Shown here in pieces: positions 1 through 28,647 of a stretch of 64,000 bases of DNA. This DNA comes from Promethearchaeota archaeon (GTDB lineage: Archaea; Asgardarchaeota; Lokiarchaeia; Sigyniarchaeales; SOKP01). The stretch spans positions 10,635 through 74,634 of the forward strand of contig JAUVXW010000013.1 in the NCBI GenBank assembly GCA_030603385.1, in the 5' to 3' direction. Position numbers and translations under genes: made by a program. Numbering within the stretch: position 1 is the stretch's first letter; every line of letters starts with the position of its first letter. The notes below the pieces were generated by a model. The model saw only the letters and a program-made list of their open reading frames with translations, searched no databases and was not told the DNA's origin.

Positions 1-1430
1 TATTTCCATGCATTACGGGTACAGAAAAATATAAAGCTGTAATGGTTGATGTAAGTGCCAGAGGTATATACGTTGGTAACGACGTCTCACGAATGAGGGG
101 TGTACTTAAAATCAAACATCCAATAGAAAGGGGCGCAATCATGGATTGGGATAGCTTCTACGAAATCCTCAACTATATCTTCTACACTTTGCTTCGAATT
201 GAAGATTTATCCGATTATCCAATATTTTACTGTGAATCACCTTTCATGAATAAAGAAACTAAAGAATACATCGCAAGACTTTTATTTGAAACTCATAAAA
301 TTAAAAGTCTAATTATGATGCCAACACCCTTATTGTCATTATTCAGTGTAGGACTAACAACAGGATTAGTCATAGAGTCAGGAGACGGTCTAACTTGGGT
401 AGTCCCTATTATAAATGGTCAAATGATTCAACATTCCGTACAAAAGCTTCCCCTAGCTGGTGTTGACGTCAATCACAATCTGAAAAATCTTTTAATGAGG
501 GAAGGAATAAATATAGCATCAAGTGCAGTCGATGAAATTATTCAAGAAATTAAAGAAAAAAATTGTTATTTTGTTTTAGATCCGAACAATCCCCCCAAAA
601 CGAATGAGATGTTCAGTACTCCAATGCCAGACGGCTCTACTATAAAAATGCCTAATTATATTCTCTCTCAAGCACCAGAAGTTATGTTTAATCCAGGTAT
701 GTTAGGTTATAGCTCTGTTATGAATTTACCTGATGCTGTAATAGCTAGCTTAAGAGTATTAGATAATAATTACTGGCACGAATTATTATCTCATATTGTA
801 ATTTCAGGAGGAAATCTTTCATATAGCGGTTTTGAGGAAAGATTCGAATCTGAGATGAATGCTGTACTTCCTCAATTAGGTTCAATTCCACGACCAAAAC
901 CAACACTAACTACTGTAAAAAATGAATTAATTCAACTCCAAGCAACTGAAATGTCCAAGAAAAAACATGATACATGTAGTCATTGTGGAGCATTCGTAGA
1001 TTTATCCTCTGGTATTGAATATTGTCCTTCATGTGGAGGGAGATTAGTTTTGCCTGAAATAAAAATCGATTTATCTCCCCAAAGTGGAAAAAGAGCACTA
1101 AAAAAAGGGAATTGTCCCTTCTGTAATAAAGAGATTGCAGATATGTCATCCTCCTTTTGTCCTTATTGTGGAAGATCAATAGAAAGTTTAGAGAAAACTG
1201 ATATTCCCGAAGTTGTAAAAACAAAGACACCTGCTCAAGAATTTACTGAATACATGGAGGCTTCTAGCAAAGTTTTGAAACTCTTTGTGCCTGACAATCT
1301 ACAATTTACTATTTTCAATGGAGCAGCTATTCTAGGAAGTTTACCCTCGTTTCAGAATCTTTTTATCACCTATGAGCAATTTCAATCTAATAAAGATCTG
1401 TTATATAGGGATATAAGCGAAATTCTTTAA
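1..1430 (+). CDS. Actin-family protein (eukaryote/Asgard-like actin fold), 5' end outside window, with internal double zinc-ribbon insertion
   Basis: Frame is open from nt 3 (FPCITGTEKYKAV precedes the first Met at 42). Collinear by eye with actin: YVGND..RG.L.IKHPIERG.I.DWD, ESGDGLTWVVPI (actin DSGDGVTHTVPI), LPLAG.D, IKEKNCYFVLD (actin IKEKLCYVALD), ISGGN.SY.GF..R, FNGAAILGSL (actin [10 protein letters not shown]). Confidence 0.85.
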   Translation, partial: FPCITGTEKYKAVMVDVSARGIYVGNDVSRMRGVLKIKHPIERGAIMDWDSFYEILNYIFYTLLRIEDLSDYPIFYCESPFMNKETKEYIARLLFETHKIKSLIMMPTPLLSLFSVGLTTGLVIESGDGLTWVVPIINGQMIQHSVQKLPLAGVDVNHNLKNLLMREGINIASSAVDEIIQEIKEKNCYFVLDPNNPPKTNEMFSTPMPDGSTIKMPNYILSQAPEVMFNPGMLGYSSVMNLPDAVIASLRVLDNNYWHELLSHIVISGGNLSYSGFEERFESEMNAVLPQLGSIPRPKPTLTTVKNELIQLQATEMSKKKHDTCSHCGAFVDLSSGIEYCPSCGGRLVLPEIKIDLSPQSGKRALKKGNCPFCNKEIADMSSSFCPYCGRSIESLEKTDIPEVVKTKTPAQEFTEYMEASSKVLKLFVPDNLQFTIFNGAAILGSLPSFQNLFITYEQFQSNKDLLYRDISEIL

Positions 1431-1581: not shown

Positions 1582-2670
1582 TTGAAGAGCAAATTTCGGT
1601 ATTTCACTATTCTATTCCTAGTGTTTTTTTTTACATTGAATATAATTCCGATTGTATTAGGTAAAACACGAAATGCATATTTAATCGATTTTCTTTTTAG
1701 CACTGAGATTGAAGGTGAAGGATTTAAAAATGGGATTGAAGGGGAAGGACCCAGTAATGAGGCAACGGCTTATGCTTTAGAGATTTTAGACTATTATGGT
1801 CGAACAGCTCATGACGTTACTGATCTCGAAACATACTTAGAAACAGAATTAGAGACTATGTTTGACGATGATGAAATTGTACTTTATGAATTATACTACT
1901 TACTTAAATCCTTAAATGTATTAGATTTTAATTATTCAAGTTTAAAAAATAGAATCCATCAGTTTATTAATGGAACTGAACAAATTGGCGGAGGATTTTC
2001 ATTTTCAAATACATCTACATTAGCAAGTATGAGCTCAACATACTTTGTTGTTCAAGTTTTTAATTTAATAGAAGAATCTATACCAAATAAAACTGTTCAT
2101 AGAGATTGGATTATATTATGTAATAATAGTGATGGTGGATACGGTGGTAATAGAAGTTTATCTTCTACTTTACTTACCACATATTATGCCGTTTATCTTT
2201 TGGATGTATTAAGCTCATTTAATGATTTAGCAGATATAAATCTGACTTCAACCTATTTAAATTCTTTTTACATACAGAATCCATCAGATACGAATAATTT
2301 TGGGGGGTGTAAACCTGACCTCACAGCTAATTACGCCTTGATAAGCAGTACGTATCACTGTGTAAGTGCGATTTATATCATTAATGAAAGTATGCTTAAT
2401 AGTGGTCAAACTACAAAATGGATATTATCTCGTCAATATTTTCAAGATGGAGGTTTTGCAGATATAACAGAGGGAACCAGCCAGCGAATCTCATCTGTAA
2501 TTTCATCGTATTATGCCTTTGAAACTTTAGATTTATTTGGTTCATTGGGAAAATTGTCAGCAGCAGTATTTATGGTAGAATTTGACTACTGGATTTTAAT
2601 AATCATATTGGGGAGCATTGGCTTAGTTGCGGCTATAGGTGTAATTCTTTGGCGAAGAAGAAGAATTTAA
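1582..2670 (+). CDS. Secreted, C-terminally anchored protein with prenyltransferase/terpene-cyclase-like (alpha-alpha toroid) repeats
   Basis: TTG start; N-terminal hydrophobic signal-like segment (FTILFLVFFFTLNIIPIVLG); recurring G-G-aromatic repeat cores (IGGGFSFSN, SDGGYGGN, QDGGFADI); C-terminal TM helix followed by RRRRI. Confidence 0.4.
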   Translation: MKSKFRYFTILFLVFFFTLNIIPIVLGKTRNAYLIDFLFSTEIEGEGFKNGIEGEGPSNEATAYALEILDYYGRTAHDVTDLETYLETELETMFDDDEIVLYELYYLLKSLNVLDFNYSSLKNRIHQFINGTEQIGGGFSFSNTSTLASMSSTYFVVQVFNLIEESIPNKTVHRDWIILCNNSDGGYGGNRSLSSTLLTTYYAVYLLDVLSSFNDLADINLTSTYLNSFYIQNPSDTNNFGGCKPDLTANYALISSTYHCVSAIYIINESMLNSGQTTKWILSRQYFQDGGFADITEGTSQRISSVISSYYAFETLDLFGSLGKLSAAVFMVEFDYWILIIILGSIGLVAAIGVILWRRRRI

Positions 2671-2762: not shown

Positions 2763-3629
2763 ATGAATGATAAAATATTAGATGGAAAGTCATTAGCAGA
2801 AAAACTAAATTTGGCATTGAAAGTTAAAATTAAGGAAGCAGTAGATAGAATAGGTATTAAACCTAAAATAGTTACTATATTAGTTGGAGAAGATCCCGCT
2901 TCAAAAGTCTATTTGAATATGAAGAAGAGAACCAGTGCTTTTGTAGGTATAGAATCAGAAATTTTAGAATTAGATGAACATATTTCAAAAGAGAAAATTA
3001 CAGAAAAAATCAATAAACTTAACACAAATGATAATGTACATGGTATTTTACTACAACTACCTCTTCCAAAATCCCAAGCTTCTAATACACTAAAGTATAT
3101 TGAAAATATATCCCCAAAAAAGGACGTAGACGGATTAACTCCTGTAAATAAAGGTAGACTTTACGATTATAACGAAAACCTAGCACCATGTACTCCTACA
3201 GGAATTATTACATTACTAGAATATTATAACATTGAACTAAAAGGGAAAGAAGTAGTTATCATTAATCGTTCAAATCTTGTCGGTAAACCTTTAATCTTTA
3301 TGATGCTTAAACGGAATGCTACTGTTTCAGTTTGTCATACATCCACAATAAATATTGAAAACCATATGAGAAGAGCAGATATCTTAGTTGTAGCTGTTAG
3401 GCATCCAAATTTTGTAACTAAAGAAAAAATAAAAAAGGGTGCAATAATAATCGATGTAGGTATCAATAGAGTCAATGGAAAATTATGTGGAGATGTAAAT
3501 TTTGAAGATGTTTTTGAAAAAAGTGGTAAAATTGCTCCTTCTCCTGGGGGTATTGGCCCACTAACTGTTCACTTTTTGCTACAAAATACTTTTACAGCAT
3601 ATAAAAATCAATTAGGAATTAATTTTTGA
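2763..3629 (+). CDS. folD: Bifunctional methylene-tetrahydrofolate dehydrogenase / methenyl-THF cyclohydrolase
   Basis: ILDGKSLAEKL start, VGEDPASKVYLNMK, HGILLQLPLP, DVDGLTP.N.G, PCTP.GI, NRSNLVGKP, PGGIGPLTV; size 288 aa typical of FolD. Confidence 0.85.
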   Translation: MNDKILDGKSLAEKLNLALKVKIKEAVDRIGIKPKIVTILVGEDPASKVYLNMKKRTSAFVGIESEILELDEHISKEKITEKINKLNTNDNVHGILLQLPLPKSQASNTLKYIENISPKKDVDGLTPVNKGRLYDYNENLAPCTPTGIITLLEYYNIELKGKEVVIINRSNLVGKPLIFMMLKRNATVSVCHTSTINIENHMRRADILVVAVRHPNFVTKEKIKKGAIIIDVGINRVNGKLCGDVNFEDVFEKSGKIAPSPGGIGPLTVHFLLQNTFTAYKNQLGINF

Positions 3630-3795: not shown

Positions 3796-4251
3796 ATGGC
3801 AATATTAGAAGTTGGAATCAATATCGGAATGAAAAGCTTAATTGAGATTAAGTATTATTCATCTTCGGATAATTTATTAGATCCAGATTTGCGTGCTGGA
3901 TTTCTAACTGCATTGGAAAGTTTTACTAGTGAAGTTTTTGGTGACGATATTAACGTAATCTCTCTTGCAAGCTTTAAGTTAGTCTGCTATTGTGAAATGA
4001 TACAAATGCCCAGCAATGATGCTGAAAATACACAACCATTATTATCGTTTGCCATTATTGAAAAAGGAACAGAAGTTCCGGTAGTTAAAGATCAATTAAA
4101 CGAAATTGTTACTTATTTTCTAAACCGATATTCATTGAATGATATTTTTTCTAAAAAACCTAAATATTTTAAAGATTTTGAAACTCGTATAAATGAAATC
4201 TTAGGAGACTTAAAACTAAAAACAGAGGATCGTTTTAGATCCATATTTTAG
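3796..4251 (+). CDS. Hypothetical small protein, possible longin-like alpha/beta fold
   Basis: 151 aa. Apparent beta-beta-alpha-beta-beta-beta-alpha pattern (SLIEIKYY / DPDLRAGFLTALESFTSEVFG / INVISLASFKLVCYCEM / LLSFAIIEKG / VVKDQLNEIVTYFLNRY). Sits directly upstream of the DRG-like GTPase. Fold call is by eye only. Confidence 0.35.
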   Translation: MAILEVGINIGMKSLIEIKYYSSSDNLLDPDLRAGFLTALESFTSEVFGDDINVISLASFKLVCYCEMIQMPSNDAENTQPLLSFAIIEKGTEVPVVKDQLNEIVTYFLNRYSLNDIFSKKPKYFKDFETRINEILGDLKLKTEDRFRSIF

Positions 4252-4318: not shown

Positions 4319-5515
4319 TTGAGTTCGAATATTGGAGCACCAGCTAAAGCGAAGTACCAAGAATATTTAGATGCGGGATCTTTAGAGCAAAAAATAAAAC
4401 TACTGGGGGAATTCATTTCTTTAGTTCCTAAACATAAAGCAACAGAGAAGATTATAGCACTAAATAAATCTCGTGTTGCTAAGATGAAACGTGAGATTGA
4501 AGACCGAATACAGCAGCAGAAGATTACTCAAAAGGTTGTCAGCCCCTTTTCAATCAAAAAAGAAGGAATTCAAATAATATTGATAAGTGCGTATTATACA
4601 CCTGGAGTTGGTAAAACTTCTCTTTTAAACTTTTTAACTGGTGCTGCGGAAGAAAAAATTGGTAAATTTACTGCTCTTCCTGAAATAGGAATCTATCAAT
4701 ATAACAAAATTCGATTTCAAATCGTAGAAATGCCTTCCATCATGAGAGGAGCATCAGAGGGTATAGGAAATGGAAAAGAAATATTATCTCAACTTAGATC
4801 TTGCGATTTAATTTGTATATGTGTGGATCTATCGAGAAGTTTTGAAGAGCAGATGAGTTTACTTTTAGAAGAATTATCTAAAGCTGAAATTAGAATAAAT
4901 ATACCTCCTCCTCCTCTAAAAATTCAAAAGACAGGTTCAAATAAAATTCAAGTCCTGTATTTAACAAGTGATGCCAAAAATGTCGAGGATATTAAAGACT
5001 TTACTGAAAAAATTAAAGAAATTATACTTGAAAATGGGATAAGAAATGCTATAGTAAAAGTTTATGGAGCTATTTCTTTTGATGATCTTGTAGATGCTTT
5101 AAATCCTTCTGTTGTCTATAAAAAAGCTATGGTTATAGCAACTAAAGGTGATCTCCCCCACACCGAGGAACCATTCGAAAAATTAAAACGGGAGTATTCT
5201 GATAAATTTTCAAAAATAATAGGGACTAGTGTACATAAAAGAAACGTCCCTCAAGATTTTGGTGAAGTAATTCTAAGATTTTTAAAGAAAATACGAATAT
5301 ATACAATGAGCGTTGGAGGAGATATAGCAGAGAAACCATTAATAATGGAGGAAAATTCAACTATTAAAGATGCTGCAATTAAGATTCATAAAAGTTTCTA
5401 TGAATCTTTTGATCACGCGATAGTTATAAGGCAAGACGCTCGTCAAAAACGTAAAAGGGTTGGACTAGATTACGAATTACATGATATGGATATAATTGAA
5501 ATCTCTACTATGTGA
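4319..5515 (+). CDS. DRG/Obg-family GTPase homologue with C-terminal TGS-like domain and divergent G motifs
   Basis: TTG start. N-terminal KHKATEKIIALNKSRVAKMKREIE resembles the DRG N-terminal helix. P-loop YTPGVGKT, G4-like TKGD. C-terminal IRIYTMSVGG..KPLIMEENSTIKDAAIKIHKSF resembles TGS. G3 position reads EMPS instead of DxPG. Confidence 0.65.
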   Translation: MSSNIGAPAKAKYQEYLDAGSLEQKIKLLGEFISLVPKHKATEKIIALNKSRVAKMKREIEDRIQQQKITQKVVSPFSIKKEGIQIILISAYYTPGVGKTSLLNFLTGAAEEKIGKFTALPEIGIYQYNKIRFQIVEMPSIMRGASEGIGNGKEILSQLRSCDLICICVDLSRSFEEQMSLLLEELSKAEIRINIPPPPLKIQKTGSNKIQVLYLTSDAKNVEDIKDFTEKIKEIILENGIRNAIVKVYGAISFDDLVDALNPSVVYKKAMVIATKGDLPHTEEPFEKLKREYSDKFSKIIGTSVHKRNVPQDFGEVILRFLKKIRIYTMSVGGDIAEKPLIMEENSTIKDAAIKIHKSFYESFDHAIVIRQDARQKRKRVGLDYELHDMDIIEISTM

Positions 5516-5542: not shown

Positions 5543-8212
5543 TCAATATTTTATCTGTTCGATTAAATTAGGAATCTCTTGGATCTCCAATTTATATTTT
5601 GAATCTAAATCGAAAATTCCTTCTAATATATTTTTTATACTCTCTAAACTATAGATTAAATTTTCTAGATAACCGATCATATCACCTTTGTGAATTACTA
5701 TTTTATATTCTTCCACAAAATAATTACAAATTTCCTCTATTGTTAATTTATGCTCTACTCGTAAATTTAATATGATTTTCTCAAGGTTTAATCGTCCACA
5801 ATCGCAATATGGTGAATCTTTACAACTACAATTGAAAATTTCACTAATCCATTTCGAAATGAATTCTATAAATTCCTGAGAAAATGTTTTTCTTTTTCTT
5901 ACATAATCTGCATTCAAAAGAGAAAGAACGCTACCACTAAATAAATTATTACTAAGATACCTCATATTCACATTTTTAGCTAAATCTGCTACAATTCCTT
6001 TAGACAAATATACGTTTTTAATAGGTTTAAGGTCAAGAGCAATTGTAATTACTGTCTTCTCCTTATTCTTTATTATTTCCACAATTTCTAAACATTGTTC
6101 TGTAGTTAGGAATGACTTTGCGATAGCTTGCCCTAAATGAGTGGATTTATAGACAAAATTTTCTTTTATTCTTATTGTCCTCATCAGATTTAATTTTTTC
6201 AAAAATGAATCTAACTCATATTTGTTATTAATTAAAAGTTCGAAATATTTATAGATTATCTCTTTTTTAATGCCTTGATTAAACATAGATATAAAGGCTA
6301 ATAATTCTGTTAAACTTTTACTTTCATTTGGGAGTAATTCAAAATCTTTAATTTTTCCATTTAATAATTTAATAGCTATTACTTCTTCAGTTTCTTTCAT
6401 TTTAGGAGAATAAACCTTTTCTGGCTCCACAAGTAAATATGCATAACCTAAATCATGCTTTCCTAGCCTTCCACTGCGTCCTAACATCTGTTCAAATTCT
6501 GCTACGCTTAGCCATTTAATACCCATAGCTAAGGATTCAAAGATTACTTGACTTGCTGGAAGATCCACACCAGCAGCTAATGCAGCAGTCGCGATTACTC
6601 CGGCAATTTTTTGAGCTCTAAAGTCACCTTCAATTGCTTTTCGTTCCTCATTAGTTAACCCAGAATGGTATGAAGATACATTGATTCCTCTTTCTTGCAA
6701 GTGAGCGGTGATAATTTCACATTTGTTCCTAGTGTTGGTAAAAATTATCGACTGACCTTTAAAACCATATTTAGATTTTTTAAAGTAAGCCGCTTTAACT
6801 AATTTTGAAATTCGTTTGTATTTTTGAACTTCATTAAGGCATAGTATTAGATGTCTCTCAATGGGAACAGGTCTGTTGTTATACATAATCAACTTGCAAT
6901 CTAATTTTTCAGCTAAAAGTTTTGGTTCTCCTAACGTTGCACTTAAATATAAAAATTGAGCTTCATTATAAAGCAACTTCATACGAGCAATGAATCCATC
7001 TAATAAGTAACCTCTCTCTAAATCAATCATGGTTTGAATCTCGTCAACAATAATCGTACTAATATTTCCTAGTAGTGACTTTTTGCCACTTCTTAAAACA
7101 TAATCTATTGCTTCATATGTAGCTATAATTATATCTGCATTGATTAAATCCTCTTGGGCTGTTTCTTCACTTTTTTCAAATAAAGATGCCCCTACTTTTT
7201 TTAATATTTTTAAGTTTAAAGATTTATATCTTTCCTTAAATTCTTCAGTTCTTAAATTAGCTAAAGCTACAATTGGTACAAGATAAAGTATTTTTGCACT
7301 TCTATTCTTTAAAACTTTCGAGACACCTGCTAATTCTCCTACTAATGTTTTCCCTCCTGAAGTTGGCGCTATTATTAATTGGTTTGAAGATTCACTTATT
7401 AAACCTTTTTCAATAGCTAGAGCTTGTATTGGCAACAATAAATTTAGATTAAATTGCTTTAATACCTTTTTAAAAGGCTGCGGGATCTCTAAGTCCTCAA
7501 TTTTTTTATTAAGATATTTTTTATTAATTGGAGATTTTTTTTCAATATCGTAAAGTGTAATATCTCTATTGGTTGCAGGATTAAAATCCGCTTGAAATGC
7601 GGTTAAAATTTTTTTTATATTTTTAAATTTTAGAATCATATGTGTAAAAAAGCTTTTTAACTTTGGATTAATCCGACCTTGATTAACTAAACCTCTATGT
7701 CTTAGTTCCCTAGAAATGATATTATATGCACATTCAGAGCATAATATTTGATTTTTAAATGATAATATTTGAGATCCCTCGTTTAAAATTGTGAATTTCT
7801 GAGTACTTAAGCAAGATTTACAAAAAGTTAAATTCTTTATTTTATTTTCATCAAATTGAAAGTTTTTAAGCATTTCATTTATAATGGTGAGATTTTCAAG
7901 AGAAGATTGGCTTGAAAATGCAATAAATCTGTTTTTATCAGAAAGTAAAAATTTTTTAAAGAGGTGAGGGTTAATTGGAGCGACATTTCCATCTTTTTCA
8001 ATTTTATTAAAACTTAATGGACGAATTCTATTTTTGAAATCTAAACCAAAAAGAACAATCCCCCTAAAAAAAGGTTCGTTGATATAGGAAAATTTGAAAC
8101 CTTTTTCCTTAAACTTTTTGATATAAAAGAAATTAACATTAAAAATCAGATCTTTCTTAGATTTTTCTTTACGATCTAAAACAATAAAAAAATCCCTTGA
8201 AGATATGCTCAA
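5543..8212 (-). CDS. Superfamily-2 (Ski2/Hel308-like) DEAD/DEAH-box helicase with Cys-rich N- and C-terminal modules
   Basis: APTSGGKTLVGELA (motif I), VDEIQ (II), SATL (III), TAALAAGVDLPA (V), QMLGRSGR (VI); Cys clusters CKSC..CSEC near the N-terminus and CSCKDSPYCDCG near the C-terminus. Confidence 0.8.
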   Translation of the reverse strand: MSISSRDFFIVLDRKEKSKKDLIFNVNFFYIKKFKEKGFKFSYINEPFFRGIVLFGLDFKNRIRPLSFNKIEKDGNVAPINPHLFKKFLLSDKNRFIAFSSQSSLENLTIINEMLKNFQFDENKIKNLTFCKSCLSTQKFTILNEGSQILSFKNQILCSECAYNIISRELRHRGLVNQGRINPKLKSFFTHMILKFKNIKKILTAFQADFNPATNRDITLYDIEKKSPINKKYLNKKIEDLEIPQPFKKVLKQFNLNLLLPIQALAIEKGLISESSNQLIIAPTSGGKTLVGELAGVSKVLKNRSAKILYLVPIVALANLRTEEFKERYKSLNLKILKKVGASLFEKSEETAQEDLINADIIIATYEAIDYVLRSGKKSLLGNISTIIVDEIQTMIDLERGYLLDGFIARMKLLYNEAQFLYLSATLGEPKLLAEKLDCKLIMYNNRPVPIERHLILCLNEVQKYKRISKLVKAAYFKKSKYGFKGQSIIFTNTRNKCEIITAHLQERGINVSSYHSGLTNEERKAIEGDFRAQKIAGVIATAALAAGVDLPASQVIFESLAMGIKWLSVAEFEQMLGRSGRLGKHDLGYAYLLVEPEKVYSPKMKETEEVIAIKLLNGKIKDFELLPNESKSLTELLAFISMFNQGIKKEIIYKYFELLINNKYELDSFLKKLNLMRTIRIKENFVYKSTHLGQAIAKSFLTTEQCLEIVEIIKNKEKTVITIALDLKPIKNVYLSKGIVADLAKNVNMRYLSNNLFSGSVLSLLNADYVRKRKTFSQEFIEFISKWISEIFNCSCKDSPYCDCGRLNLEKIILNLRVEHKLTIEEICNYFVEEYKIVIHKGDMIGYLENLIYSLESIKNILEGIFDLDSKYKLEIQEIPNLIEQIKY

Positions 8213-10464: not shown

Positions 10465-11226
10465 AAAATTCTATTATGGATAATTTTATTTAGTATATTA
10501 GGTAGTGTTGGGGCTATAATAGTAGCAGGTGCTTTTGTTTTTTTAGGTGAAAAATATCAAGAAATACTCATCCCGATCCTTATTTCATTTGCTACAGGAA
10601 TTCTCCTAGCAGCAGCATTTTTAGGATTAATTCCAGAGGCTATTGAAGAATTGGGTGGAGAGGCACATTTGATTATGCCATATGTTTTAGGAGGGATTTT
10701 GTTTTTCTTTTTTATGGAGAAGTTAATCATTTGGAGAAATTGTAGAAATAAAGAATGTGAGGTTCATTCTCATGCTTCAGGTCCTATTATACTTATAGGC
10801 GATTCACTGCATAATCTAACAGACGGAATTGTGATTGCGACTGCTTTTTTAACAAGTACAAGCCTTGGTATAAGTGCAGGATTAACAATTTTGGTTCATG
10901 AACTTGCTCATGAAACTGGAGATTTCGGTATTTTACTTCATTCAGGATATTCAAAGAAAAAGGCATTTATGTATAATCTTGTTTCGAGTTCTACAACAAT
11001 ACCCGCTGCAATATTAGGTTATTTTATATTAGGTGCTATTTCTTCAGTAGTTCCTTTCATCTTAGCAATCTCCGCATCTAGTTTCATATATATTTCTTTA
11101 TCTGATTTAACACCTGATCTTCATCAGCATAGTGATTTAAAATATAGCATTCAGCAATTGTTTTTCATTATCGTTGGAATTCTCTTAATGTATTTATTAC
11201 TAACATTGGGGGGCCATAATCATTAA
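10465..11226 (+). CDS. ZIP-family (ZupT-like) divalent metal transporter; start codon unresolved
   Basis: HELAHETGDFGILL signature. The frame is open from 10465 and encodes typical ZIP N-terminal helices (ILGSVGAIIVAGAFVFLG...ATGILLAAAFLGLIPEA) upstream of the track's TTG at 10651. No in-frame ATG/GTG/TTG in that extension. Confidence 0.7.
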   Translation, partial: KILLWIILFSILGSVGAIIVAGAFVFLGEKYQEILIPILISFATGILLAAAFLGLIPEAIEELGGEAHLIMPYVLGGILFFFFMEKLIIWRNCRNKECEVHSHASGPIILIGDSLHNLTDGIVIATAFLTSTSLGISAGLTILVHELAHETGDFGILLHSGYSKKKAFMYNLVSSSTTIPAAILGYFILGAISSVVPFILAISASSFIYISLSDLTPDLHQHSDLKYSIQQLFFIIVGILLMYLLLTLGGHNH

Positions 11227-11237
11227 AATATTATATC

Positions 11238-11663
11238 TTGATTGAAATGTTAGAATTAGATTATAAGGTTCTGAAGAAGATATATCATTCTTCAAAATAT
11301 TTAAAGGTTGGAGATCTTGCCAAAATTCTTCGTTTTCCCCATTCTACAATTGGGAGTTGCATCAAGAGATTAGAAGAGAACGGATATGTTATATATGAGC
11401 GATATAAGCCAGTTTTTTTATCAAAGGAAGGAGAAGGTCTTGCTGCTGAACTAACACGTCATGCCCGACTTCTTGAATTGCTATTGCACAATGAATTGGG
11501 ATTGACCCCTAAAGATGCTCATAATGAAAGTGAGAAATTCTATTTACTTTTCTCTTGTAATACGATTAATAGAATCTGTGCTAAATATTCTCACCCAAAA
11601 ATGTGTCCTTGCGGAGAAGAAATTTTAAACTCTTCAGAATGTTTTTGTGAGAAAAAAAATTAA
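11238..11663 (+). CDS. DtxR/MntR-family metal-dependent transcriptional repressor
   Basis: N-terminal wHTH (VGDLAKILRFPHSTIGSCIKRLEENGYV), then RHARLLELLLHNELGL dimerisation/metal-site helix. Immediately downstream of the ZIP transporter gene. Confidence 0.7.
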   Translation: MIEMLELDYKVLKKIYHSSKYLKVGDLAKILRFPHSTIGSCIKRLEENGYVIYERYKPVFLSKEGEGLAAELTRHARLLELLLHNELGLTPKDAHNESEKFYLLFSCNTINRICAKYSHPKMCPCGEEILNSSECFCEKKN

Positions 11664-13739: not shown

Positions 13740-14309
13740 TTGGATGACATAATTAACCTGAAGCTAATTGTTCTTGGAGAAGGAGAAGTAGGAAAATCAT
13801 CAATAATAAACGCATTTATGGGAGAAGAAATTTCTGAGAGATATATGCCTACAATCGGGAGTGTTACGTTTAGAAAAGAATATACATTAAAAGAAATATC
13901 AAAAATTATTAGACTGACTATCTGGGATCTTGGTGGTCAAAAATCCTTCAATCCTTATAATCCCGCCTATTACGCCAATGCCGATTTAGCTCTATTAGTT
14001 TTTGATGTAACCAAACCAGAAATCACATTGAAGAACCTTAAAAAAGAATTTGAGGAAAAAATGAGTATTTCATCAGAAGAATGTATATCTATCTTTGTAG
14101 GAAATAAAATGGACCTGCTTGATGTAGATAAAGGGTTTAAAAACACACTCCAAGACTTTTTTAATAATAGGGATCATTTTATTTTACTATCTGCTAAAAC
14201 TGGTTTAAATATTAAAGAGAGTTTTGAACTATTAATTTTTACATATCTACAGAGAGCAGAATTATTAGCTCCTGAACTTGTTCAAGAAAACTCTGCAAAA
14301 ATTTTTTAA
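13740..14309 (+). CDS. Ras/Rab-like small GTPase
   Basis: All five G motifs: GEGEVGKS (G1), YMPTIG (G2 Thr), WDLGGQ (G3), GNKMD (G4), LSAK (G5). 189 aa, TTG start, no C-terminal Cys lipidation motif. Confidence 0.8.
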   Translation: MDDIINLKLIVLGEGEVGKSSIINAFMGEEISERYMPTIGSVTFRKEYTLKEISKIIRLTIWDLGGQKSFNPYNPAYYANADLALLVFDVTKPEITLKNLKKEFEEKMSISSEECISIFVGNKMDLLDVDKGFKNTLQDFFNNRDHFILLSAKTGLNIKESFELLIFTYLQRAELLAPELVQENSAKIF

Positions 14310-14786: not shown

Positions 14787-15707
14787 GTGATTAAAATTTC
14801 AAATACCGAAGAAACACCAACAAAAGATTTACAGAATTTAAAAGAGCAAATAAAGAAAATTGATCAGAAATTGAATCAACAGATAAAAACGTTTGACCAG
14901 AAAACACTTGATCATGTGAACAAATCTGATAAGAAATTTACTGATCAATTGAAGAAAATAGGACAGAAAATTGATGATGATGTAAAGAAACTTGATCAAA
15001 CTATAACTAACCAAATTAGTAAACTAGAGCAAGGTTCAAGGGAGAAAATAGGCAAACTTGATAAGAGTTTAGATGAACAAATTAATAGTATCAATAAAAA
15101 AATTGAAGATATTACTAATCTTTTCGATCAAGAGTTAGAAGATAAATTCAATACTCTCAATAATAAAATAGAAGGAAATAACAAAGCATTAATTGAAGAA
15201 TTGGAGAGTGCATCCAGCAAACTTGATAAGAATCTTAATGATCAAATCTCTAATGTAGAAGATAAAATTAAAATCATAATTGATAGTATAAAAGCGGTAA
15301 ATGACGATTTTTCCCTAAAATTTCAGAGATTGAAAGAGGAATTTGATACAAAGGAAGAAGTTCTTAGTGATATGTTAAAGAAATTTGAAGAAGAAACTAT
15401 TGAATTTAAAAACAGCCTCAAACCAGAGTTAGAAGATCTTAAAAGTCAACAAGATTTGGTCAAAATAACAGTAGATATACTTAAAAAGCAAATTTTTGAA
15501 AGTGCTAGAGAATGGATTAATGATGAGATTAAATTAGCATGTAAAAATAAAGAAAGAGAAATCTTAATGAATTTATGGATTGATGAGCTAAAAGAAGTTA
15601 TTGGGGATTTAGATAAATTAAAAAAAACAAATCCTAAAGAATTAAAAATTCATATAAATGAAATTTCAACTACTATTGAATCATTTCGCCAAAAGTTTGT
15701 CAAATAA
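14787..15707 (+). CDS. Coiled-coil protein built from ~16 consecutive 11-residue (hendecad) repeats
   Basis: GTG start. Residues ~14-189 parse without gaps into 11-mers (IDQKLNQQIKT / FDQKTLDHVNK / SDKKFTDQLKK / IGQKIDDDVKK / LDQTITNQISK / LEQGSREKIGK / LDKSLDEQINS ...). Confidence 0.6.
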   Translation: MIKISNTEETPTKDLQNLKEQIKKIDQKLNQQIKTFDQKTLDHVNKSDKKFTDQLKKIGQKIDDDVKKLDQTITNQISKLEQGSREKIGKLDKSLDEQINSINKKIEDITNLFDQELEDKFNTLNNKIEGNNKALIEELESASSKLDKNLNDQISNVEDKIKIIIDSIKAVNDDFSLKFQRLKEEFDTKEEVLSDMLKKFEEETIEFKNSLKPELEDLKSQQDLVKITVDILKKQIFESAREWINDEIKLACKNKEREILMNLWIDELKEVIGDLDKLKKTNPKELKIHINEISTTIESFRQKFVK

Positions 15708-17421: not shown

Positions 17422-18882
17422 ATGACTAACGAATTTAATGGAGAAGATAAGGAAAGTAAACCAGACAAGGAAAGCGAGAGGATAGATAAGGAATTTTTAA
17501 CTAAAGCAAAAAATTCCAGAGATATGATAGATAAAAAATTGAGAACTTTTGAGAATAGTATAGAAGATATCTCAGAAACAATTACTAACGGCGAAACAGA
17601 AGAAGAAAAAGAAAAAAGTAAAAAAGAAGTAGAAGAAATTAGTGAAGAGATAAAAGAAGCACAACTAAAACTTGATACGGTTTCAAAGAAAATTGATGAT
17701 AAAGAAGAATATTTAACTGCTCTTGAAGAAACTATATCTGCTCTTGAAGAAAAGTATAATCGGAAAACAGAAGAAATGAAAAATCTGGAAGAACGATTTG
17801 AAATTATAAAAGAGAGCAAAGATAATCTAGAAGATGATTATAAAGAACTCTTAAGAAATAACGAACAATTAGTAAAAACATATGAAAGTAGACAAGTTGA
17901 TTTAATTGTTCTTACAGATTCTGTAAAAGAGAAAGTTTCATCTCAGGATGAACTGAGAAATCAAATCTCAAAATTAAATCAAGAAATATCAGAAAAGGAA
18001 GCAAAACTGGAGAAACAAAGGGAAGAATCAGAGGTTCTAGAGAAAAAAATAAAAAGCCAGAGTGCTGAAAACGAAACTTTAAGATTTTATCTTAATAAAA
18101 ATAAAGTTGAATTAGAGCATTCTAATTCTGAAATTGAAGCAAAAGAAGAGGAAAGAAAACTTTTAACAGAACAAATTGAAAAAAAAGAAATAAGAATAAA
18201 GGAAGTAGAACAAAAAATTGAAGAATATCATGATGGATTTCCTGAAATGGAAAAACAAAGAGAAACATATGAGGAACTTCTTGCTAAGTATAAAGTTCAA
18301 CTAACTGATAAACAACAACAATTAATTGACATGGAATCTCGAATTCAAGAGCTCAAAGACGCAACTGAATCCTTAGATGAACAAACAAACGCCAAACAAA
18401 ATTTAATTGATGCGAATGAAAAAAGGATTGAAGACTTAAAACAAGATATAGAAACGTCAAATACAGAATATCTTGAGAGAGAAGAACGGCTCGACGCCAT
18501 AACAGAGAAATTGACACGTATGGAATCAGATCATGAAAAATTAAAAAAAGCTAAAGAAGCAATTGAGGGTAGTACTAATGACTCTCGAATTATACTTCAA
18601 CAATTGAAAGAAGAATTAGAAAATCAAGAAAAGGAAATTAGAGATAAAGAGAGTCGGATCCACAGATTAGAAATATTATCCGCTATTTATAGAGCTTCGA
18701 AATTCTTCGGCGGAATTTTAATAGGTGCGGGAATATTTTTTATAATTTGGTCAATAGGAATATTTACTAATACAATAGATTTAGGGGATGTAAATATAAA
18801 TACATTTTTAATGGTTATATTCCTGTTAGTTGGAGCTATATTATCAATTATTTCTGGAATATTCCACCTTGAGAAATCATAA
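17422..18882 (+). CDS. Long coiled-coil protein with two C-terminal transmembrane helices
   Basis: About 420 aa of E/K-rich heptad-like sequence followed by FFGGILIGAGIFFIIWSIGIF and FLMVIFLLVGAILSIISGIF. Confidence 0.6.
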   Translation: MTNEFNGEDKESKPDKESERIDKEFLTKAKNSRDMIDKKLRTFENSIEDISETITNGETEEEKEKSKKEVEEISEEIKEAQLKLDTVSKKIDDKEEYLTALEETISALEEKYNRKTEEMKNLEERFEIIKESKDNLEDDYKELLRNNEQLVKTYESRQVDLIVLTDSVKEKVSSQDELRNQISKLNQEISEKEAKLEKQREESEVLEKKIKSQSAENETLRFYLNKNKVELEHSNSEIEAKEEERKLLTEQIEKKEIRIKEVEQKIEEYHDGFPEMEKQRETYEELLAKYKVQLTDKQQQLIDMESRIQELKDATESLDEQTNAKQNLIDANEKRIEDLKQDIETSNTEYLEREERLDAITEKLTRMESDHEKLKKAKEAIEGSTNDSRIILQQLKEELENQEKEIRDKESRIHRLEILSAIYRASKFFGGILIGAGIFFIIWSIGIFTNTIDLGDVNINTFLMVIFLLVGAILSIISGIFHLEKS

Positions 18883-22207: not shown

Positions 22208-22975
22208 ATGTTTTTTATGAATTTAGAAGAAAAAATTAATCTAGCGGCTAAATGGATAGCTGAATCAGAAAGATTAGTTGTGTTTACGGGGGCAGGATGT
22301 TCAACGGGTAGCGGTATACCAGACTTTCGTGGGCCAGATGGTCTTTGGACTAGAAGAGATAAAGGTTTAGCGCCTAAAAAACCAAAAGTCCCTTGGGATC
22401 AAGCTAAACCGAACCCTAATCATTATGCTATTGCAGAGTTAATGGAAATGGGAAGGTTAAATTATCTCATTTCTCAAAATATAGATGGATTACACGCTAA
22501 ATCAGGTATTCCATTTGAAATGCTAGCCGAGCTTCATGGTAACCAATTCTTTATGAAATGCTTATCGTGCAATAAAAAAATGTTATTTGAGGAAGCAAAA
22601 TGGGATAAGAAGATTTGGGGTCGAGGATTTAGAAAAGACCCAGTTCGAGAAGATCAGCCAACTTGTCCCCATTGTGGGGGAAGAATCATTAATAGCATAG
22701 TTGATTTTGGAGATCCTTTACCATATGATGAACTTCAAGAATCAATGATACGATCTCAAAATTCAGATGTGTTTTTAGTAATTGGATCATCGCTGGTCGT
22801 TACGCCAGCCGCTAATATGCCTGGTATTGCCAATCAGAATGGAGCAAAATTGATTATCATAAATAAAGGTGATACTCCTTATGATATGGTGACAGATATA
22901 AAATTTGACGATAAAATTGAAGACGTTCTCCCACCCATAATGGAAAAAGTAAAAGAAATGACAAAAAGTAGTTAG
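22208..22975 (+). CDS. Sir2-family NAD-dependent protein deacylase (sirtuin), paralogue 1
   Basis: FTGAGCSTGSGIPDFRGPDGLW, QNIDGLH, ELHGN catalytic His, zinc ribbon CLSC...CPHCGG. Confidence 0.85.
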   Translation: MFFMNLEEKINLAAKWIAESERLVVFTGAGCSTGSGIPDFRGPDGLWTRRDKGLAPKKPKVPWDQAKPNPNHYAIAELMEMGRLNYLISQNIDGLHAKSGIPFEMLAELHGNQFFMKCLSCNKKMLFEEAKWDKKIWGRGFRKDPVREDQPTCPHCGGRIINSIVDFGDPLPYDELQESMIRSQNSDVFLVIGSSLVVTPAANMPGIANQNGAKLIIINKGDTPYDMVTDIKFDDKIEDVLPPIMEKVKEMTKSS

Positions 22976-23072
22976 CGTATTTTTTTACTATTTATTTATT
23001 ACTATAATATTTCTTAATTTCATTACGACATGGTAATTATCTTTTTATAATCAAGATCGTTATTTTTATAAT

Positions 23073-23828
23073 ATGGACTTAAAAGATAAAATTGATCTAG
23101 CGGCTAAATGGATAGCTGAGTCTAAAAGATTAGTTGTGTTTACCGGTGCAGGAATCTCCACTGAAAGTGGTATACCTGATTTTCGAGGACCTGATGGATT
23201 GTGGACGAGAAGAGATAAAGGACTTCCTCCTCCTAAGAGCCCTCCCTGGGATCAGGTAAAACCAAACCCTGGACATTATGCAATTGTTGAATTATTAAAA
23301 ATGGGTAAATTGGATTATCTTATATCTCAAAATGTTGATGGTTTACATGCTAAATCTGGAGTTTCATTTGAAAAATTAGCCGAACTTCATGGAAATATGT
23401 ATTTCATGAAATGTTTAAGTTGCGGTAAGAAAATGTTGTTTGAAGAAGTTGGTTGGGATCAAGAAACTTGGGGGAAAGGATATAGGTCCAGCCCAGTCAA
23501 GAAAGGACAGCCACCGTGTCCCAATTGTGGGGAACGAGTTATTAATAGCATAGTCAATTTTGGTGATCCGTTACCAGAAGATGATTTATCTGAATCCATA
23601 AGAAGATCTGAAAGAAGCGATGTTTTTTTTGTAGTAGGCTCCTCACTTGTGGTTGTCCCTGCTGCTAATATGCCATTATATGCAAAACAGCATGGTGCGA
23701 AATTAATAATTTTGAATAAGGGAGAGACTCCTTATGATGGAATAGCTGATTTAAGGTTTTCTGATCAAATCGGAGATGTGTTACCACCTATAGTTGAGAA
23801 AGTAAAACGATTGATGAATGTAGAATAA
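23073..23828 (+). CDS. Sir2-family NAD-dependent protein deacylase (sirtuin), paralogue 2
   Basis: FTGAGISTESGIPDFRGPDGLW, QNVDGLH, ELHGN, CLSC...CPNCG. Collinear with paralogue 1 over its full length. Confidence 0.85.
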   Translation: MDLKDKIDLAAKWIAESKRLVVFTGAGISTESGIPDFRGPDGLWTRRDKGLPPPKSPPWDQVKPNPGHYAIVELLKMGKLDYLISQNVDGLHAKSGVSFEKLAELHGNMYFMKCLSCGKKMLFEEVGWDQETWGKGYRSSPVKKGQPPCPNCGERVINSIVNFGDPLPEDDLSESIRRSERSDVFFVVGSSLVVVPAANMPLYAKQHGAKLIILNKGETPYDGIADLRFSDQIGDVLPPIVEKVKRLMNVE

Positions 23829-27594: not shown

Positions 27595-28647
27595 ATGGTA
27601 ATAGAAACAAATATTACAAGTATGTTAGGGATTAAACATCCAATTCTAAGTGCTCCAATGGGACCTTTCTATACTACTAAATTAACAGTTGCCGTATCAG
27701 AAGCGGGAGGGTTAGGTGTTTTAAGCCATGTTACTATACATGGAACTGTAACTATAGATGAAATGAAAAAAAGTATGGAATATGTTGTAGAACATACTGA
27801 TAAACCTTTTGGATTTAATATAAGAACAGCTAGATTGCAACCAGATGCTATAAAACTTTGCAGACAACTTCCGAGATTTATTATGGAGAATCCAAAAATA
27901 AAAGAACAATGTGTTTATTTAATTACAAGTGCGGGTTCTCCAAGATTGATATATAATAAACACTTTGAAAAATTAAAAGAAAGTGGTTCAAACATCAAAC
28001 ATTTCCATGTCGCACCTTCATTATATCTCGCTGAAAAATTGTTAAATAGTGGTGTCGATGGGCTGGTTATTACTGGAACTGAAGGTGGTGGGCATCAATC
28101 ATATGAAAACATAAGTACATTGGTGCTATTACAACAAATAAGAAAACATATACCAGAAGTTCCTATTATCGCCTCAGGGGGTTATGCTACTGGTGAAGGG
28201 TTAGCTTCTGCTTTATCTATGGGAGTGGGAGCTATTGCTATGGGTTCTAGATTTATTTCTTCTAAAGAATGTGAATTTCACGAAAATTATAAAAAAATGG
28301 TTGTTGAATCAACTGCTTCAGATACTGAGCTAATAACCGGGATTTTTGGACGCGCCAGGGTTTGGAAAAATAAAATGTCTGAAAAGCATAGCCTTGTTGA
28401 AAGTAAAGAAGAAAAGCAAGCTGAGGAGACTTCAATGTCAAAAATAGAAAGAGAGTTAGCTGATCTAGAAAAAACTTATGAAGGAAACATTGAGGAAGGT
28501 ATAGCTTATTTAGGTCAAAGTGTCGAACTCATCGACAGCGTAGAATATGTGTCTGATATAATAAAAACTATTGTAAATGATGCTGAAAAGTGTTTAACAG
28601 CTGCTTTTAACAACATCAGAAAAATTCCAATTGAACAAATTGCTTAA
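27595..28647 (+). CDS. Nitronate monooxygenase / NPD-family FMN oxidoreductase (FabK-like), paralogue 1
   Basis: GIKHPILSAPMGPF, AVSEAGGLGVL, TGTEGGGHQS, IASGGYATGEG, GAIAMGSRF. Confidence 0.75.
   Translation: MVIETNITSMLGIKHPILSAPMGPFYTTKLTVAVSEAGGLGVLSHVTIHGTVTIDEMKKSMEYVVEHTDKPFGFNIRTARLQPDAIKLCRQLPRFIMENPKIKEQCVYLITSAGSPRLIYNKHFEKLKESGSNIKHFHVAPSLYLAEKLLNSGVDGLVITGTEGGGHQSYENISTLVLLQQIRKHIPEVPIIASGGYATGEGLASALSMGVGAIAMGSRFISSKECEFHENYKKMVVESTASDTELITGIFGRARVWKNKMSEKHSLVESKEEKQAEETSMSKIERELADLEKTYEGNIEEGIAYLGQSVELIDSVEYVSDIIKTIVNDAEKCLTAAFNNIRKIPIEQIA

Follow-up and report, generated by a model that had tools for sequence, protein, structure and literature searches.

To our knowledge, only Lokiactin has so far been located in cells, and the actin-related proteins (ARPs) of Asgard archaea are functionally blank. 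Several families of the actin/ASKHA fold have acquired small insertions with a function, including the membrane loop or helix of MreB, the C-terminal helix of FtsA, and the Cys-rich zinc motif of ROK kinases. These elements differ in position, sequence, and family from the insert described here. Eukaryotic ARPs with insertions, such as Arp3, the Arp4, Arp5, and Arp8 subunits of INO80, SWR1, and BAF, and Arp11 of dynactin, follow the same logic as the one proposed below: nucleotide binding is kept, the inserts form new surfaces, and free polymer behaviour is lost. We know of no eukaryotic Arp with a zinc ribbon. For Arp3, contacts both with filaments and with subunits other than actin are reportedly governed by the inserts (PMC4947185).

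Pfam DZR and archaeal CPxCG ribbons likewise consist of two CxxC...CxxC knuckles with CPxCG-type motifs. Unlike in DZR, the ribbon pair described here sits within a loop of a different domain and is split by a linker of 20-30 residues. A functional analogy is provided by CdpC of Haloferax volcanii, an anchor of FtsZ1 that has two zinc ribbons with a disordered linker between them (bioRxiv 10.64898/2026.07.16.738847). One ribbon binds the polymer, the other end of the protein uses an amphipathic helix to bind the membrane, and the Cys residues are essential (bioRxiv 10.64898/2026.07.16.738847). CdpC is an archaeal cytoskeletal zinc-ribbon adaptor and a precedent for linking cytoskeleton and membrane. 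However, it is a protein in its own right whose target is a homologue of tubulin, whereas the ribbons described here are built into the actin-fold protein itself.

The locus lies at the start of a window of 64,000 nucleotides from a Promethearchaeota archaeon (contig JAUVXW010000013.1), and comprises the following features.

3..875, + strand: N-terminal part of the actin-fold core, covering subdomains 1, 2, and 4 and the larger share of 3, as far as the helix that corresponds to actin 309-320 (Pfam Actin and phmmer)
324..326, + strand: Thr (q108, codon ACA) at the position of the actin catalytic Gln137 (pairwise and family alignments)
396..398, + strand: Trp (q132, codon TGG) at the position of actin His161; invariant W164 in the close-family alignment
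876..974, + strand: insert pre-linker (LGSIPRPKP...LIQLQATEMSKKKHDT), without an actin counterpart; a short predicted amphipathic helix, then a Lys cluster
975..1034, + strand: predicted zinc ribbon 1 (CSHCG...14 aa...CPSCG), Cys q325/328/341/344; Zn_ribbon_3 and DZR matches; pLDDT 81-87
1035..1112, + strand: conserved strand (R)LVLPEIKI, then the variable inter-ribbon linker; LPEIKI is conserved across the family
1113..1169, + strand: predicted zinc ribbon 2 (CPFCNK...FCPYCG), Cys q371/374/386/389; Zn_Ribbon_1 match; pLDDT 78-83
1170..1268, + strand: insert post-linker, net acidic across the clade (median net charge -4); conservation 0.53
1269..1430, + strand: C-terminal part of the actin-fold core and stop codon, with a subdomain 3 strand and the C-terminal helices of subdomain 1 (phmmer q421-463 = actin 318-359); pLDDT 93-94
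1582..2670, + strand: alpha/alpha-toroid neighbour gene, whose product has a signal peptide, a prenyltransferase-type domain outside the cell, and a TM helix at the C terminus, followed by a basic tail of 5-8 residues (WRRRRI)
2763..3629, + strand: FolD (methylene-THF dehydrogenase/cyclohydrolase), as a rule third in the conserved gene order (Pfam names, tblastn)

The actin-like gene is an uninterrupted frame-3 ORF (nt 3-1430, + strand, stop codon at 1428-1430), whose 5' end is cut by the window edge. Its first listed ATG (nt 42) is internal. Full-length homologues extend the ORF by 32 residues at the N terminus, and a stretch of about this length, phosphate loop 1 among it, falls outside the window, upstream of nt 3. 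The whole protein has 507 aa, as against ~375 aa in conventional actin. Pfam Actin (PF00022) matches ORF residues 2-290 (E 3e-54; 184.6 bits, cut-off 27; positions 31-354 of the 410-position profile). The phmmer alignment to PDB actins is split, with q1-291 matching actin 31-323, q421-463 matching actin 318-359, and nothing aligned between the two. The insert is therefore assigned to q292-422, that is, 131 residues (nt 876-1268) between actin residues about 323 and 325, in the subdomain 3 loop 321-327 that is short and unbroken in conventional actins. The best PDB sequence match of the ORF is 9wc4, 'HC1 actin' from Hodarchaeales (E 5e-60, phmmer), while rabbit actin and the zinc-ribbon ARP are ~33% identical. 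These alignments agree with the initial annotation, which had described an actin homologue carrying ~130 residues without an actin counterpart at nt 876-1271, and had put two zinc-ribbon units joined by a linker exactly where they are now placed.

An AlphaFold model was made for P0001, a homologue 93% identical to the window fragment, from a diverse alignment (A4), with the fragment itself not being the modelled sequence. Overall pLDDT is 84, with values above 90 in the core, 78-87 in the ribbons, and 39-63 in the linkers; an earlier model from a family-only alignment (A1) had reached 63.5 and was superseded. The model has the four-subdomain actin fold and aligns to actin chains with a TM of 0.88-0.92, normalised by target length (Foldseek). 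Judged by profile matches and this model, the ORF product is an actin-family protein with an intact actin fold. The ribbons are predicted to be autonomous small knuckles on low-confidence, length-variable linkers, which is in line with the possibility, raised from the letters alone, of an autonomous domain projecting from subdomain 3.

Profile searches of the insert give consistent results. DZR (PF12773) matches ORF residues 325-390 with 28.4 bits against a curated cut-off of 27.3, and the isolated insert of P0001 scores above the cut-offs for Zn_Ribbon_1 (36.2 bits against 25), Zn_ribbon_3 (31.8 against 27), and DZR (30.9 against 27.3). All 26 isolated inserts are matched by Zn_ribbon_3, Zn_Ribbon_1, DZR, and DZR_2. 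Each ribbon has two CxxC pairs, as in the profiles PF12773, PF13248, and PF13240, spaced by 14-16 residues (18 in one member). The insert is thus predicted to carry two Cys4 zinc-binding ribbons. When its profile was compared with the PDB, only generic CxxC matches were returned, the top one being a designed C2H2 finger and a pattern artefact, and they therefore give no functional assignment. A stand-alone homologue or donor of the insert was not found by a word-index search of a 5.8-billion protein set, in which all matches were fragments of this ARP family; the negative is weak.

The linkers are variable. The pre-linker (pLDDT 49-53, helix at 334-341 in P0001 numbering, family conservation 0.69) varies in length and charge across the clade, and its amphipathic helix and KKK cluster are seen in the Loki-type subfamily. 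The middle of the inter-ribbon linker has a conservation of 0.32 and a pLDDT of 49-54. This linker had initially been called basic, which holds in the present subfamily and fails across the clade, where its net charge has a median of +1 (range -4 to +6). The post-linker (pLDDT 39-63) has a weak helix at 444-454 (P0001 numbering).

The insert noted in this window recurs in its orthologues. The same protein, 504-510 aa long, is found in more than 120 protein clusters and in 113 matching stretches of a species-representative genome collection, for which 80 full-length loci are listed, each from a different assembly. Among 120 homologues with 62-93% identity, all eight ribbon Cys are 99-100% conserved (100% in ribbon 1, 99-100% in ribbon 2). 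The ribbons, with a family conservation of 0.71-0.79, come close to the core (mean 0.83) in this respect, and are under purifying selection. Conservation extends to non-Cys residues (DTC, LPEIKI, FCPYCG.KIE), which fits the expectation for a binding surface.

In the wider clade (36-93% identity), ribbon 1 is always present and ribbon 2 usually so: the former was found in all ~60 ARPs scanned, and the latter in 62 of 80 members sampled, being missing from a single-ribbon subclade. In a rough neighbour-joining tree, built without labelled eukaryotic Arps, the ribbon-bearing ARPs are monophyletic with respect to plain actins; the best 60 PDB sequence matches are actins, with no Arp among them. 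According to the alignments and this tree, the single-ribbon form is a basal subclade and the double-ribbon form is that of the present protein, and the ribbon-bearing ARPs appear as a large, ancient, and slowly evolving Asgard clade of Lokiarchaeia type. Taxon labels of JBHL* MAGs (Hod-, Thor-, Odin-, and Hermodarchaeota) were not taken as a spread across Asgard classes, because the proteins of these MAGs are 62-90% identical and have identical synteny.

Given this distribution, an artefact has next to no chance of accounting for the insert, and only the a priori oddity of such a segment within an actin speaks for one. An assembly chimera is ruled out by the same architecture and length in the 80 listed independent assemblies and more than 120 clusters, together with conserved synteny. 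A frameshifted pseudogene is ruled out by the continuous frame and by ribbons that bear the marks of purifying selection. A recent mobile or intein-like insertion is ruled out by the in-frame position of the insert, its age, and its uniform composition (GC content 0.351, against 0.349 in the core).

With Lokiactin and eukaryotic actin, the zinc-ribbon ARP shares the four-subdomain fold (TM about 0.9), the motifs for phosphate 1, phosphate 2, and adenosine, the C-terminal cleft helices, and a D-loop like that of Lokiactin. It differs from them in its 131-residue insert at actin 323/324 and in the substitutions Gln137 to Thr, His161 to Trp, His73 to Arg, and Asp154 to Glu. The phosphate-2 (ESGDG) and adenosine (SGGN) motifs lie within the window; the phosphate-1 position lies outside it, and the motif is present in P0001 (DIGSAYVKIGFAG). 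D11, K18, G156, G158, G301, and G302 are kept in all 80 ribbon-bearing ARPs. However, the catalytic pair of conventional actins, Gln137 and His161, is lacking. The first position is occupied by Ser, Thr, or Ala in 80/80 ribbon-bearing ARPs, as against Gln in 29/42 plain actins, and the second by Trp, Phe, or Tyr in 64/80, as against His in 34/42 plain actins. His73 is replaced by Arg in 80/80. From these residues, we infer that the zinc-ribbon ARP binds ATP yet hydrolyses it poorly.

The surfaces used in actin polymers are unevenly conserved. Compared with the core mean, family conservation is high in the D-loop (0.90), subdomain 2 residues 61-65 (1.00), subdomain 4 (0.85-0.88), and the subdomain 1 cleft (0.89-0.99), and lowest in subdomain 3 residues 283-294 (0.66) and 318-328 (0.63). 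This contrast is modest. The D-loop (KYKAVMVDV) resembles that of the 9wc4 Hodarchaeales lokiactin (KYQGIMSDV), and the D-loop, hydrophobic plug region, subdomain 4 loops, and subdomain 1 cleft are all retained.

The gene order around the ARP is also conserved. The toroid gene (PF00432, E 5e-15) lies directly downstream in 78/78 Loki-type loci with downstream DNA, among the matches listed, and its homologues align over their full length (alignment A5). It adjoins the ARP in all six divergent loci (L086-L091) as well, although the other neighbours differ there. The toroid membrane protein is a candidate functional partner of the ARP. Since the invariably adjacent gene encodes a membrane-anchored surface protein, this neighbourhood suggests the cell envelope or the membrane as the cellular context, and not chromatin. 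Whether the two products bind directly, or the genes are co-transcribed, is nevertheless doubtful, given a cytoplasmic tail of only 5-8 residues and a spacer of ~150 nt with T-runs between the two genes. FolD is probably adjacent through synteny and not a functional part, and the ARP-toroid synteny may itself be historical, FolD being kept as well. The toroid adjacency is the sole comparative clue to the cellular context of the ARP.

The reading that we favour, with a probability of about 0.45, is that the protein is an ATP-binding, hydrolysis-impaired ARP whose tethered ribbons hook partners, and that it serves as an end-binding or non-polymerising adaptor rather than as a treadmilling polymer. 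Actin residues 322-325 are, as we take it from the F-actin literature (Holmes 1990 and later cryo-EM), a longitudinal filament contact. The zinc-ribbon module is inserted in the subdomain 3 loop between the 309-320 helix and the 328-332 strand of actin. It would exit the core at the surface of subdomain 3 which, in F-actin, contacts subdomain 4 of the next barbed-ward subunit, and actin-like elongation at the ARP's own barbed face would therefore be unlikely. As a general rule for actin-like polymers, subdomain IIa (subdomain 3) touches IIb (subdomain 4) of the next monomer (PMC5597319). The ARP might dock via its conserved Lokiactin-like D-loop, at the pointed face, and via its conserved hydrophobic cleft, and so act as a terminal, barbed-end-binding subunit or a non-polymerising adaptor. 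The tethered ribbons, at the barbed-end face of subdomain 3, could then capture a partner.

Two observations run counter to an adaptor. The linkers are long and flexible (28 or more and 30 or more residues), so that the ribbons could swing aside and permit polymerisation, and a protein that polymerises would be expected to retain the D-loop, hydrophobic plug, and cleft, as this one does. The ARP might thus be a filament-forming actin paralogue, present in a polymer of its own or in a co-polymer along Lokiactin, with ribbons as repeated docking, bundling, or membrane-attachment sites held clear of the interface by their linkers. The conservation of the D-loop, plug region, subdomain 4 loops, and subdomain 1 cleft is consistent with this, as are the amphipathic helix and KKK cluster of the Loki-type pre-linker. 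The bacterial proteins MreB and FtsA bind membrane by comparable elements. We nonetheless regard a filament as rather unlikely: Gln137 is lost in 80/80 members and His161 in most, which argues against an actin-like polymer driven by hydrolysis, conservation of the core is lowest at the insertion point and at the neighbouring 283-294 surface of subdomain 3, and the basic, amphipathic character of the pre-linker does not persist in the wider clade (net charge -16 to +8). Clearly less probable again is an ARP associated with nucleic acid, analogous to nuclear Arp4/5/8 of chromatin remodellers, whose ribbons would bind DNA or RNA. The nearest, weak and generic, PDB matches of the ribbons are those of RNA polymerase subunits P/M, NOB1, Nop10, and ribosomal proteins, an NCBIfam model named 'putative Zn-ribbon RNA-binding protein' matches weakly (E 0.0023, far below cut-off), the linkers are Lys-rich in the present subfamily, and genes for a DEAD/DUF5814 helicase and a DRG GTPase are no more than 5 kb away. 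However, the structural matches reflect a CxxC pattern also found in a designed finger, the linkers have no conserved charge (acidic in the post-linker, with a median of +1 between the ribbons), the helicase and GTPase are absent from the divergent loci, and the sole universally conserved neighbour encodes an exported membrane protein. The link of the filament system to nucleic acid or another protein that the initial annotation suggested is a hypothesis, and no result of the present analysis is specific to nucleic acid.

It is more improbable still that the Cys4 sites are a zinc or redox switch, in which the insert would be remodelled on losing its metal or being oxidised, and would gate the barbed face or cleft. 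Eight invariant Cys in a cytoplasmic protein of an anaerobe are compatible with such a switch. The insert also adjoins an interaction surface, and the recurrent acidic-aromatic A-x-E-F motif at its end (PAQEFTEY, nt 1236-1259, directly before core re-entry) could fold back on the core; a narrow regular expression matched this motif in 34/80 clade members. Yet nothing speaks for a switch specifically, and the conserved non-Cys ribbon residues are rather what a binding surface would be expected to show. Moreover, archaea use CPxCG ribbons everywhere as structural modules (bioRxiv 10.64898/2026.07.16.738847). The favoured adaptor could also be a dedicated end-anchor that caps or seeds Lokiactin via its pointed face, with ribbons coupling filament ends to membrane or surface machinery including the toroid protein. 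The odds are well against this narrower version, about as much as for nucleic-acid binding. If true, linkages from cytoskeleton to surface, such as adhesion or protrusion-tip complexes, would have a prokaryotic forerunner here.

Literature searches, which did not reach paywalled work, found no description of an actin or ARP with an embedded zinc ribbon, in agreement with what the initial annotation had stated. Beyond that annotation, the analysis adds the loss of Gln137 and His161, a large and apparently ancient clade with single- and double-ribbon forms, and a deeply conserved neighbour gene. The clade thereby gains a tractable handle (ribbons with invariant Cys), a catalytic signature (no Gln137), and a constant genomic partner, and these three features make the function of Asgard ARPs open to specific experiment. 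Should the ribbons couple filaments to the envelope, the protein would be the first candidate for an actin-membrane linker in archaea. The names 'centractin' and 'actin-related protein' used by JGI are automatic labels.

The window opens within a single unbroken reading frame that extends past its 5′ edge and encodes an actin-related protein (ARP) with a 131-residue insert in subdomain 3 (SD3). Pfam assigns residues 2–290 to Actin (PF00022, E 3e-54) and residues 325–390 to Double zinc ribbon (PF12773, 28.4 bits, cut-off 27.3). In a phmmer search of all PDB sequences, residues 1–291 aligned with actin 31–323 and residues 421–463 with actin 318–359, the best match being 9wc4, 'HC1 actin' (E 5e-60). 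No PDB sequence aligned to the stretch between these two parts, which therefore places the insert at residues 292–422. The initial annotation had read this sequence as an actin homologue interrupted by two zinc ribbons without an actin counterpart, and both its reading and its coordinates are correct.

Features of the ARP gene (window positions)
3–1430 (+), ARP reading frame, extending past the 5′ edge
876–1268 (+), insert, the gap between the phmmer actin alignments
975–1034 (+), Cys4 ribbon 1, inside the insert
1113–1169 (+), Cys4 ribbon 2, inside the insert
324–326 (+), Thr at the position of actin Gln137
396–398 (+), Trp at the position of actin His161

The ATG at position 42, the start given by a mechanical ORF list, is internal; full-length relatives (504–510 aa) begin 32 residues earlier, with an N-terminal start, MALPLPGTPIIIDIGSAYVKIGFAG, that is phosphate loop 1.

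The protein almost certainly belongs to a conserved clade of Asgard ARPs with an embedded zinc-ribbon module. The same ARP occurs in at least 120 clusters at the 90% level (62–93% identity), nearly all of 504–510 aa and nearly all bearing annotations for PF00022 as well as for a zinc-ribbon family. Scanning one genome per species yielded 113 matching stretches, of which 80 are listed; these loci are all full length, at 61–94% identity and all from different assemblies, and the closest relative listed is isolate ABR03 (94%). Each of the eight Cys of the insert is kept in 99–100% of 120 homologues, and GC content is 0.351 in the insert and 0.349 in the core. The orthologues that the initial annotation had proposed seeking in Asgard genomes thus exist, with the same insert and Cys pairs. 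A chimera, a pseudogene or a recent mobile insertion is excluded by the full-length homologues in many different assemblies, the conserved Cys and the uniform GC content, leaving an artefact with next to no probability.

The ARP belongs both to the actin family and to the generic zinc-ribbon/DZR families. Its sequences are already in databases under automatic names, such as 'zinc ribbon domain-containing protein', 'actin-related protein', 'centractin' and even 'rod shape-determining protein'. Full-text searches of non-paywalled literature, together with the L. ossiferum paper, the asCOG preprint and recent preprints on Asgard cell biology, turned up no account of an actin or ARP with a zinc ribbon, as had been supposed from the sequence. 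This protein offers a concrete, testable way into the biology of Asgard ARPs.

The core is ~33% identical to rabbit actin. It is no conventional actin or Lokiactin, because it lacks their catalytic residues and their short, uninterrupted SD3 loop.

Core residues in 80 ribbon-bearing sequences and 42 plain actins
D11, K18, G156, G158, G301, G302: retained in 80/80 ribbon-bearing; mostly retained in plain actins
K213: retained in 76/80 ribbon-bearing; 41/42 plain actins
E214: retained in 78/80 ribbon-bearing; 40/42 plain actins
Gln137 (catalytic): S/T/A in 80/80 ribbon-bearing; Gln in 29/42 plain actins
His161: W/F/Y in 64/80 ribbon-bearing; His in 34/42 plain actins
His73: Arg in 80/80 ribbon-bearing; His in 27/42 plain actins
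Asp154: Glu in 77/80 ribbon-bearing; Asp in 34/42 plain actins

The ARP fold should bind nucleotide without actin-like, polymerisation-coupled hydrolysis, because Q137 and H161, which position the attacking water in actin, are both replaced. Within the Loki-type subfamily, where core conservation averages 0.83, the pointed-end elements score above the mean (D-loop 0.90, residues 61–65 1.00, SD4 loops 0.85–0.88), as does the SD1 hydrophobic cleft (0.89–0.99). The least conserved core segments are on the SD3 barbed face (283–294 at 0.66 and 318–328 at 0.63); in F-actin, 322–325 (SD3) contacts 243–245 (SD4) of the next monomer. The ARP D-loop, KYKAVMVDV, is closer to the KYQGIMSDV of lokiactin 9wc4 (Hodarchaeales) than to the D-loop of eukaryotic actin.

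Structure was predicted for P0001, a full-length homologue 93% identical to the window protein. Aligning the family alone yielded a poor model (pLDDT 63.5); a 122-sequence alignment of the clade and plain actins reached pLDDT 84 and pTM 0.73. The core exceeds pLDDT 90 and matches actin chains in Foldseek (TM 0.88–0.92, target-length-normalised); ribbon 1 lies at 81–87 and ribbon 2 at 78–83. The linkers (P0001 residues 331–350, 381–400 and 421–450) lie at 39–63 overall, with a short predicted helix at 334–341 in the first and a weak one over PAQEFTEYMEA, directly ahead of core re-entry. Over the clade, linker lengths are 28–58, 20–30 and 30–95 residues, and the post-linker is mostly acidic with a recurrent A-x-E-F motif. 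The initial annotation had asked whether the insert is an autonomous domain projecting from SD3; the model depicts two autonomous Cys4 knuckles that would sit on flexible tethers, leaving and re-entering the core at one SD3 point. Conservation parallels the pLDDT, at 0.79 in ribbon 1, 0.71 in ribbon 2, 0.69 in the pre-linker, 0.32 in the mid linker and 0.53 in the post-linker.

Relatives beyond the Loki-type subfamily came from exhaustively searching 1.84 billion representative proteins with HMMER. The next are ARPs P0126, P0127, P0128, P0130, P0131 and P0134 (38–59% identity), with the insert in the same position, and beyond them rank ordinary actins of ~376 aa without it (P0142, for example). 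Searching with a profile of the divergent members added ~60 ARPs of 479–626 aa, all with CxxC...CxxC ~55–85 residues past the SGG adenosine motif; double-ribbon forms have ~500–626 aa and single-ribbon forms, some named 'Sigynarchaeum/Sigynarchaeota', 479–498 aa. A rough neighbour-joining tree (369 well-occupied columns, no bootstrap) separates the 80 ribbon-bearing sequences, as a monophyletic group, from the 42 plain actins. Within that group, 16 sequences form a single-ribbon clade whose sister is the 64-member double-ribbon clade; two members of the latter secondarily have one ribbon. Ribbon 1 (consensus D-T-C-P-x-C-G ... C-P-x-C-G) runs into a hydrophobic strand, for example LPEIKI; it is thus the ancestral, universal element of the clade. 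Nearly all records are labelled Promethearchaeota/Promethearchaeia (Lokiarchaeia-type Asgard). Among L006–L085, one MAG series (JBHL*) is labelled Hod-, Thor-, Odin- or Hermodarchaeota, and locus L073 (DATKTW01) 'Candidatus Nanopelagicaceae bacterium'. The former labels are regarded as unreliable, because the ARPs are 62–90% identical with identical synteny, and the discordantly labelled loci, L073 included, are probably mis-assigned bins.

The gene directly 3′ of the ARP is also conserved.

Downstream genes (window positions)
1582–2670 (+), toroid protein, ~365 aa
2560–2670, its C-terminal region: conserved FMVEF, transmembrane helix and a basic tail of 5–8 residues (WRRRRI)
3796–4251 (+), 151-aa ORF between FolD and the DRG-type GTPase
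4319–5515 (+), DRG-type GTPase (MMR_HSR1 + TGS)
5543–8212 (−), convergent 889-aa DEAD/Helicase_C/DUF5814 helicase

The toroid protein has a signal peptide and a prenyltransferase-type alpha/alpha-toroid domain (PF00432, E 5e-15), its nearest solved relatives being, by a weak match, farnesyltransferase beta repeats. Its C-terminal region recurs in L001–L091, always ending in I, L or V, and resembles exosortase/archaeosortase-type sorting signals (cf. PEF-CTERM); no NCBIfam model matched it. Cleavage of this signal, should it occur, would put the tail out of reach of the cytoplasmic ARP. The two genes adjoin in 78/78 Loki-type loci that extend far enough and in the six divergent loci examined (L086–L091), where the ARPs are 36–54% identical to P0127 (first sequence of the profile query), the toroid protein shares just 20–23% identity with that of the window, and the other neighbours are mostly different. 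The ~150-nt spacer between the ARP and toroid genes has T-runs along with an AT-rich segment resembling a promoter, and co-transcription is therefore not implied. The pair is the sole comparative hint at the cellular context of the ARP, and it points to the envelope.

FolD is usually the third gene; in the two loci without it, an MTD gene adjoins the pair on the opposite strand. The 151-aa ORF has no Pfam or NCBIfam match and keeps its position in the five Loki-type loci with gene calls examined (L001–L005). The GTPase and helicase are conserved beside the locus in the Loki-type lineage, and the helicase is also found in L089. Across deep divergence, a CBS-pair protein (128–144 aa) and a ModE-N-like wHTH protein (126–131 aa, GGxGGGG motif; 37% identity between L001 and L089, E 6e-19) recur near the ARP, at a position upstream of the window's 5′ edge, and may be regulators of the locus.

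CBS-pair and wHTH genes (locus positions)
L001: 7005–7382, 7493–7921
L087: 11497–11931
L088: 10998–11384
L089: 5547–5942
L090: 5482–5874
L091: 5358–5759

ESCRT genes lie 3–5 kb upstream of the ARP in L086 (2286–4487: Vps4, a 223-aa ORF, ESCRT-II) and L087 (2581–3937: two Snf7 genes), and are absent there in the window's lineage and L088–L091.

For function, the favoured proposal, to which we give a probability of about 0.45, is that the ARP would be ATP-binding and hydrolysis-impaired, with its zinc ribbons emerging from the SD3 face as tethered partner-binding hooks. It would most likely be an end-binding or non-polymerising adaptor that docks by the conserved pointed face and the cleft, with Lokiactin a plausible target. 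In actin-like polymers, SD3 as a general rule contacts SD4 of the next monomer (PMC5597319). The haloarchaeal dual zinc-ribbon protein CdpC, which ties FtsZ1 to the membrane (bioRxiv 10.64898/2026.07.16.738847), shows that archaeal ribbons can act as cytoskeletal adaptors of just this kind.

A self-polymerising paralogue decorated with ribbons is an unlikely reading; the conserved SD4 loops would favour it, but the replaced Gln137 and the SD3 barbed face, the most variable part of the core, argue against it. Such a paralogue might bind membranes through its amphipathic, basic pre-linker; linker charge is not conserved over the clade. Nucleic acid binding, one of two roles first suggested for the insert, appears improbable, and a zinc or redox switch built on the conserved Cys more improbable still.

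Elsewhere in the window are further genes of several kinds.

Other genes (window positions)
10651–11663 (+), ZIP zinc-transporter-like ORF, then directly a DtxR/iron-dependent-repressor-type metal regulator
13740–14309 (+), Ras/Roc/Arf-like small GTPase (E 2e-29)
14787–15707 (+) and 17422–18882 (+), two long coiled-coil proteins
22208–23828 (+) and 27595–30021 (+), tandem paralogue pairs

The ZIP-like ORF matches the C-terminal half of its Pfam profile alone (positions 177–322 of 323), and no link between it or the regulator and the ARP zinc ribbons is implied. The coiled-coil proteins, which follow the Ras/Roc/Arf-like GTPase, have weak, below-cut-off matches (Apolipoprotein, ATG16-like), and together with it are typical Asgard 'eukaryotic signature' content. 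One tandem pair encodes SIR2-family deacetylases, and the other consists of NMO-type (nitronate monooxygenase/enoyl reductase-like) genes.
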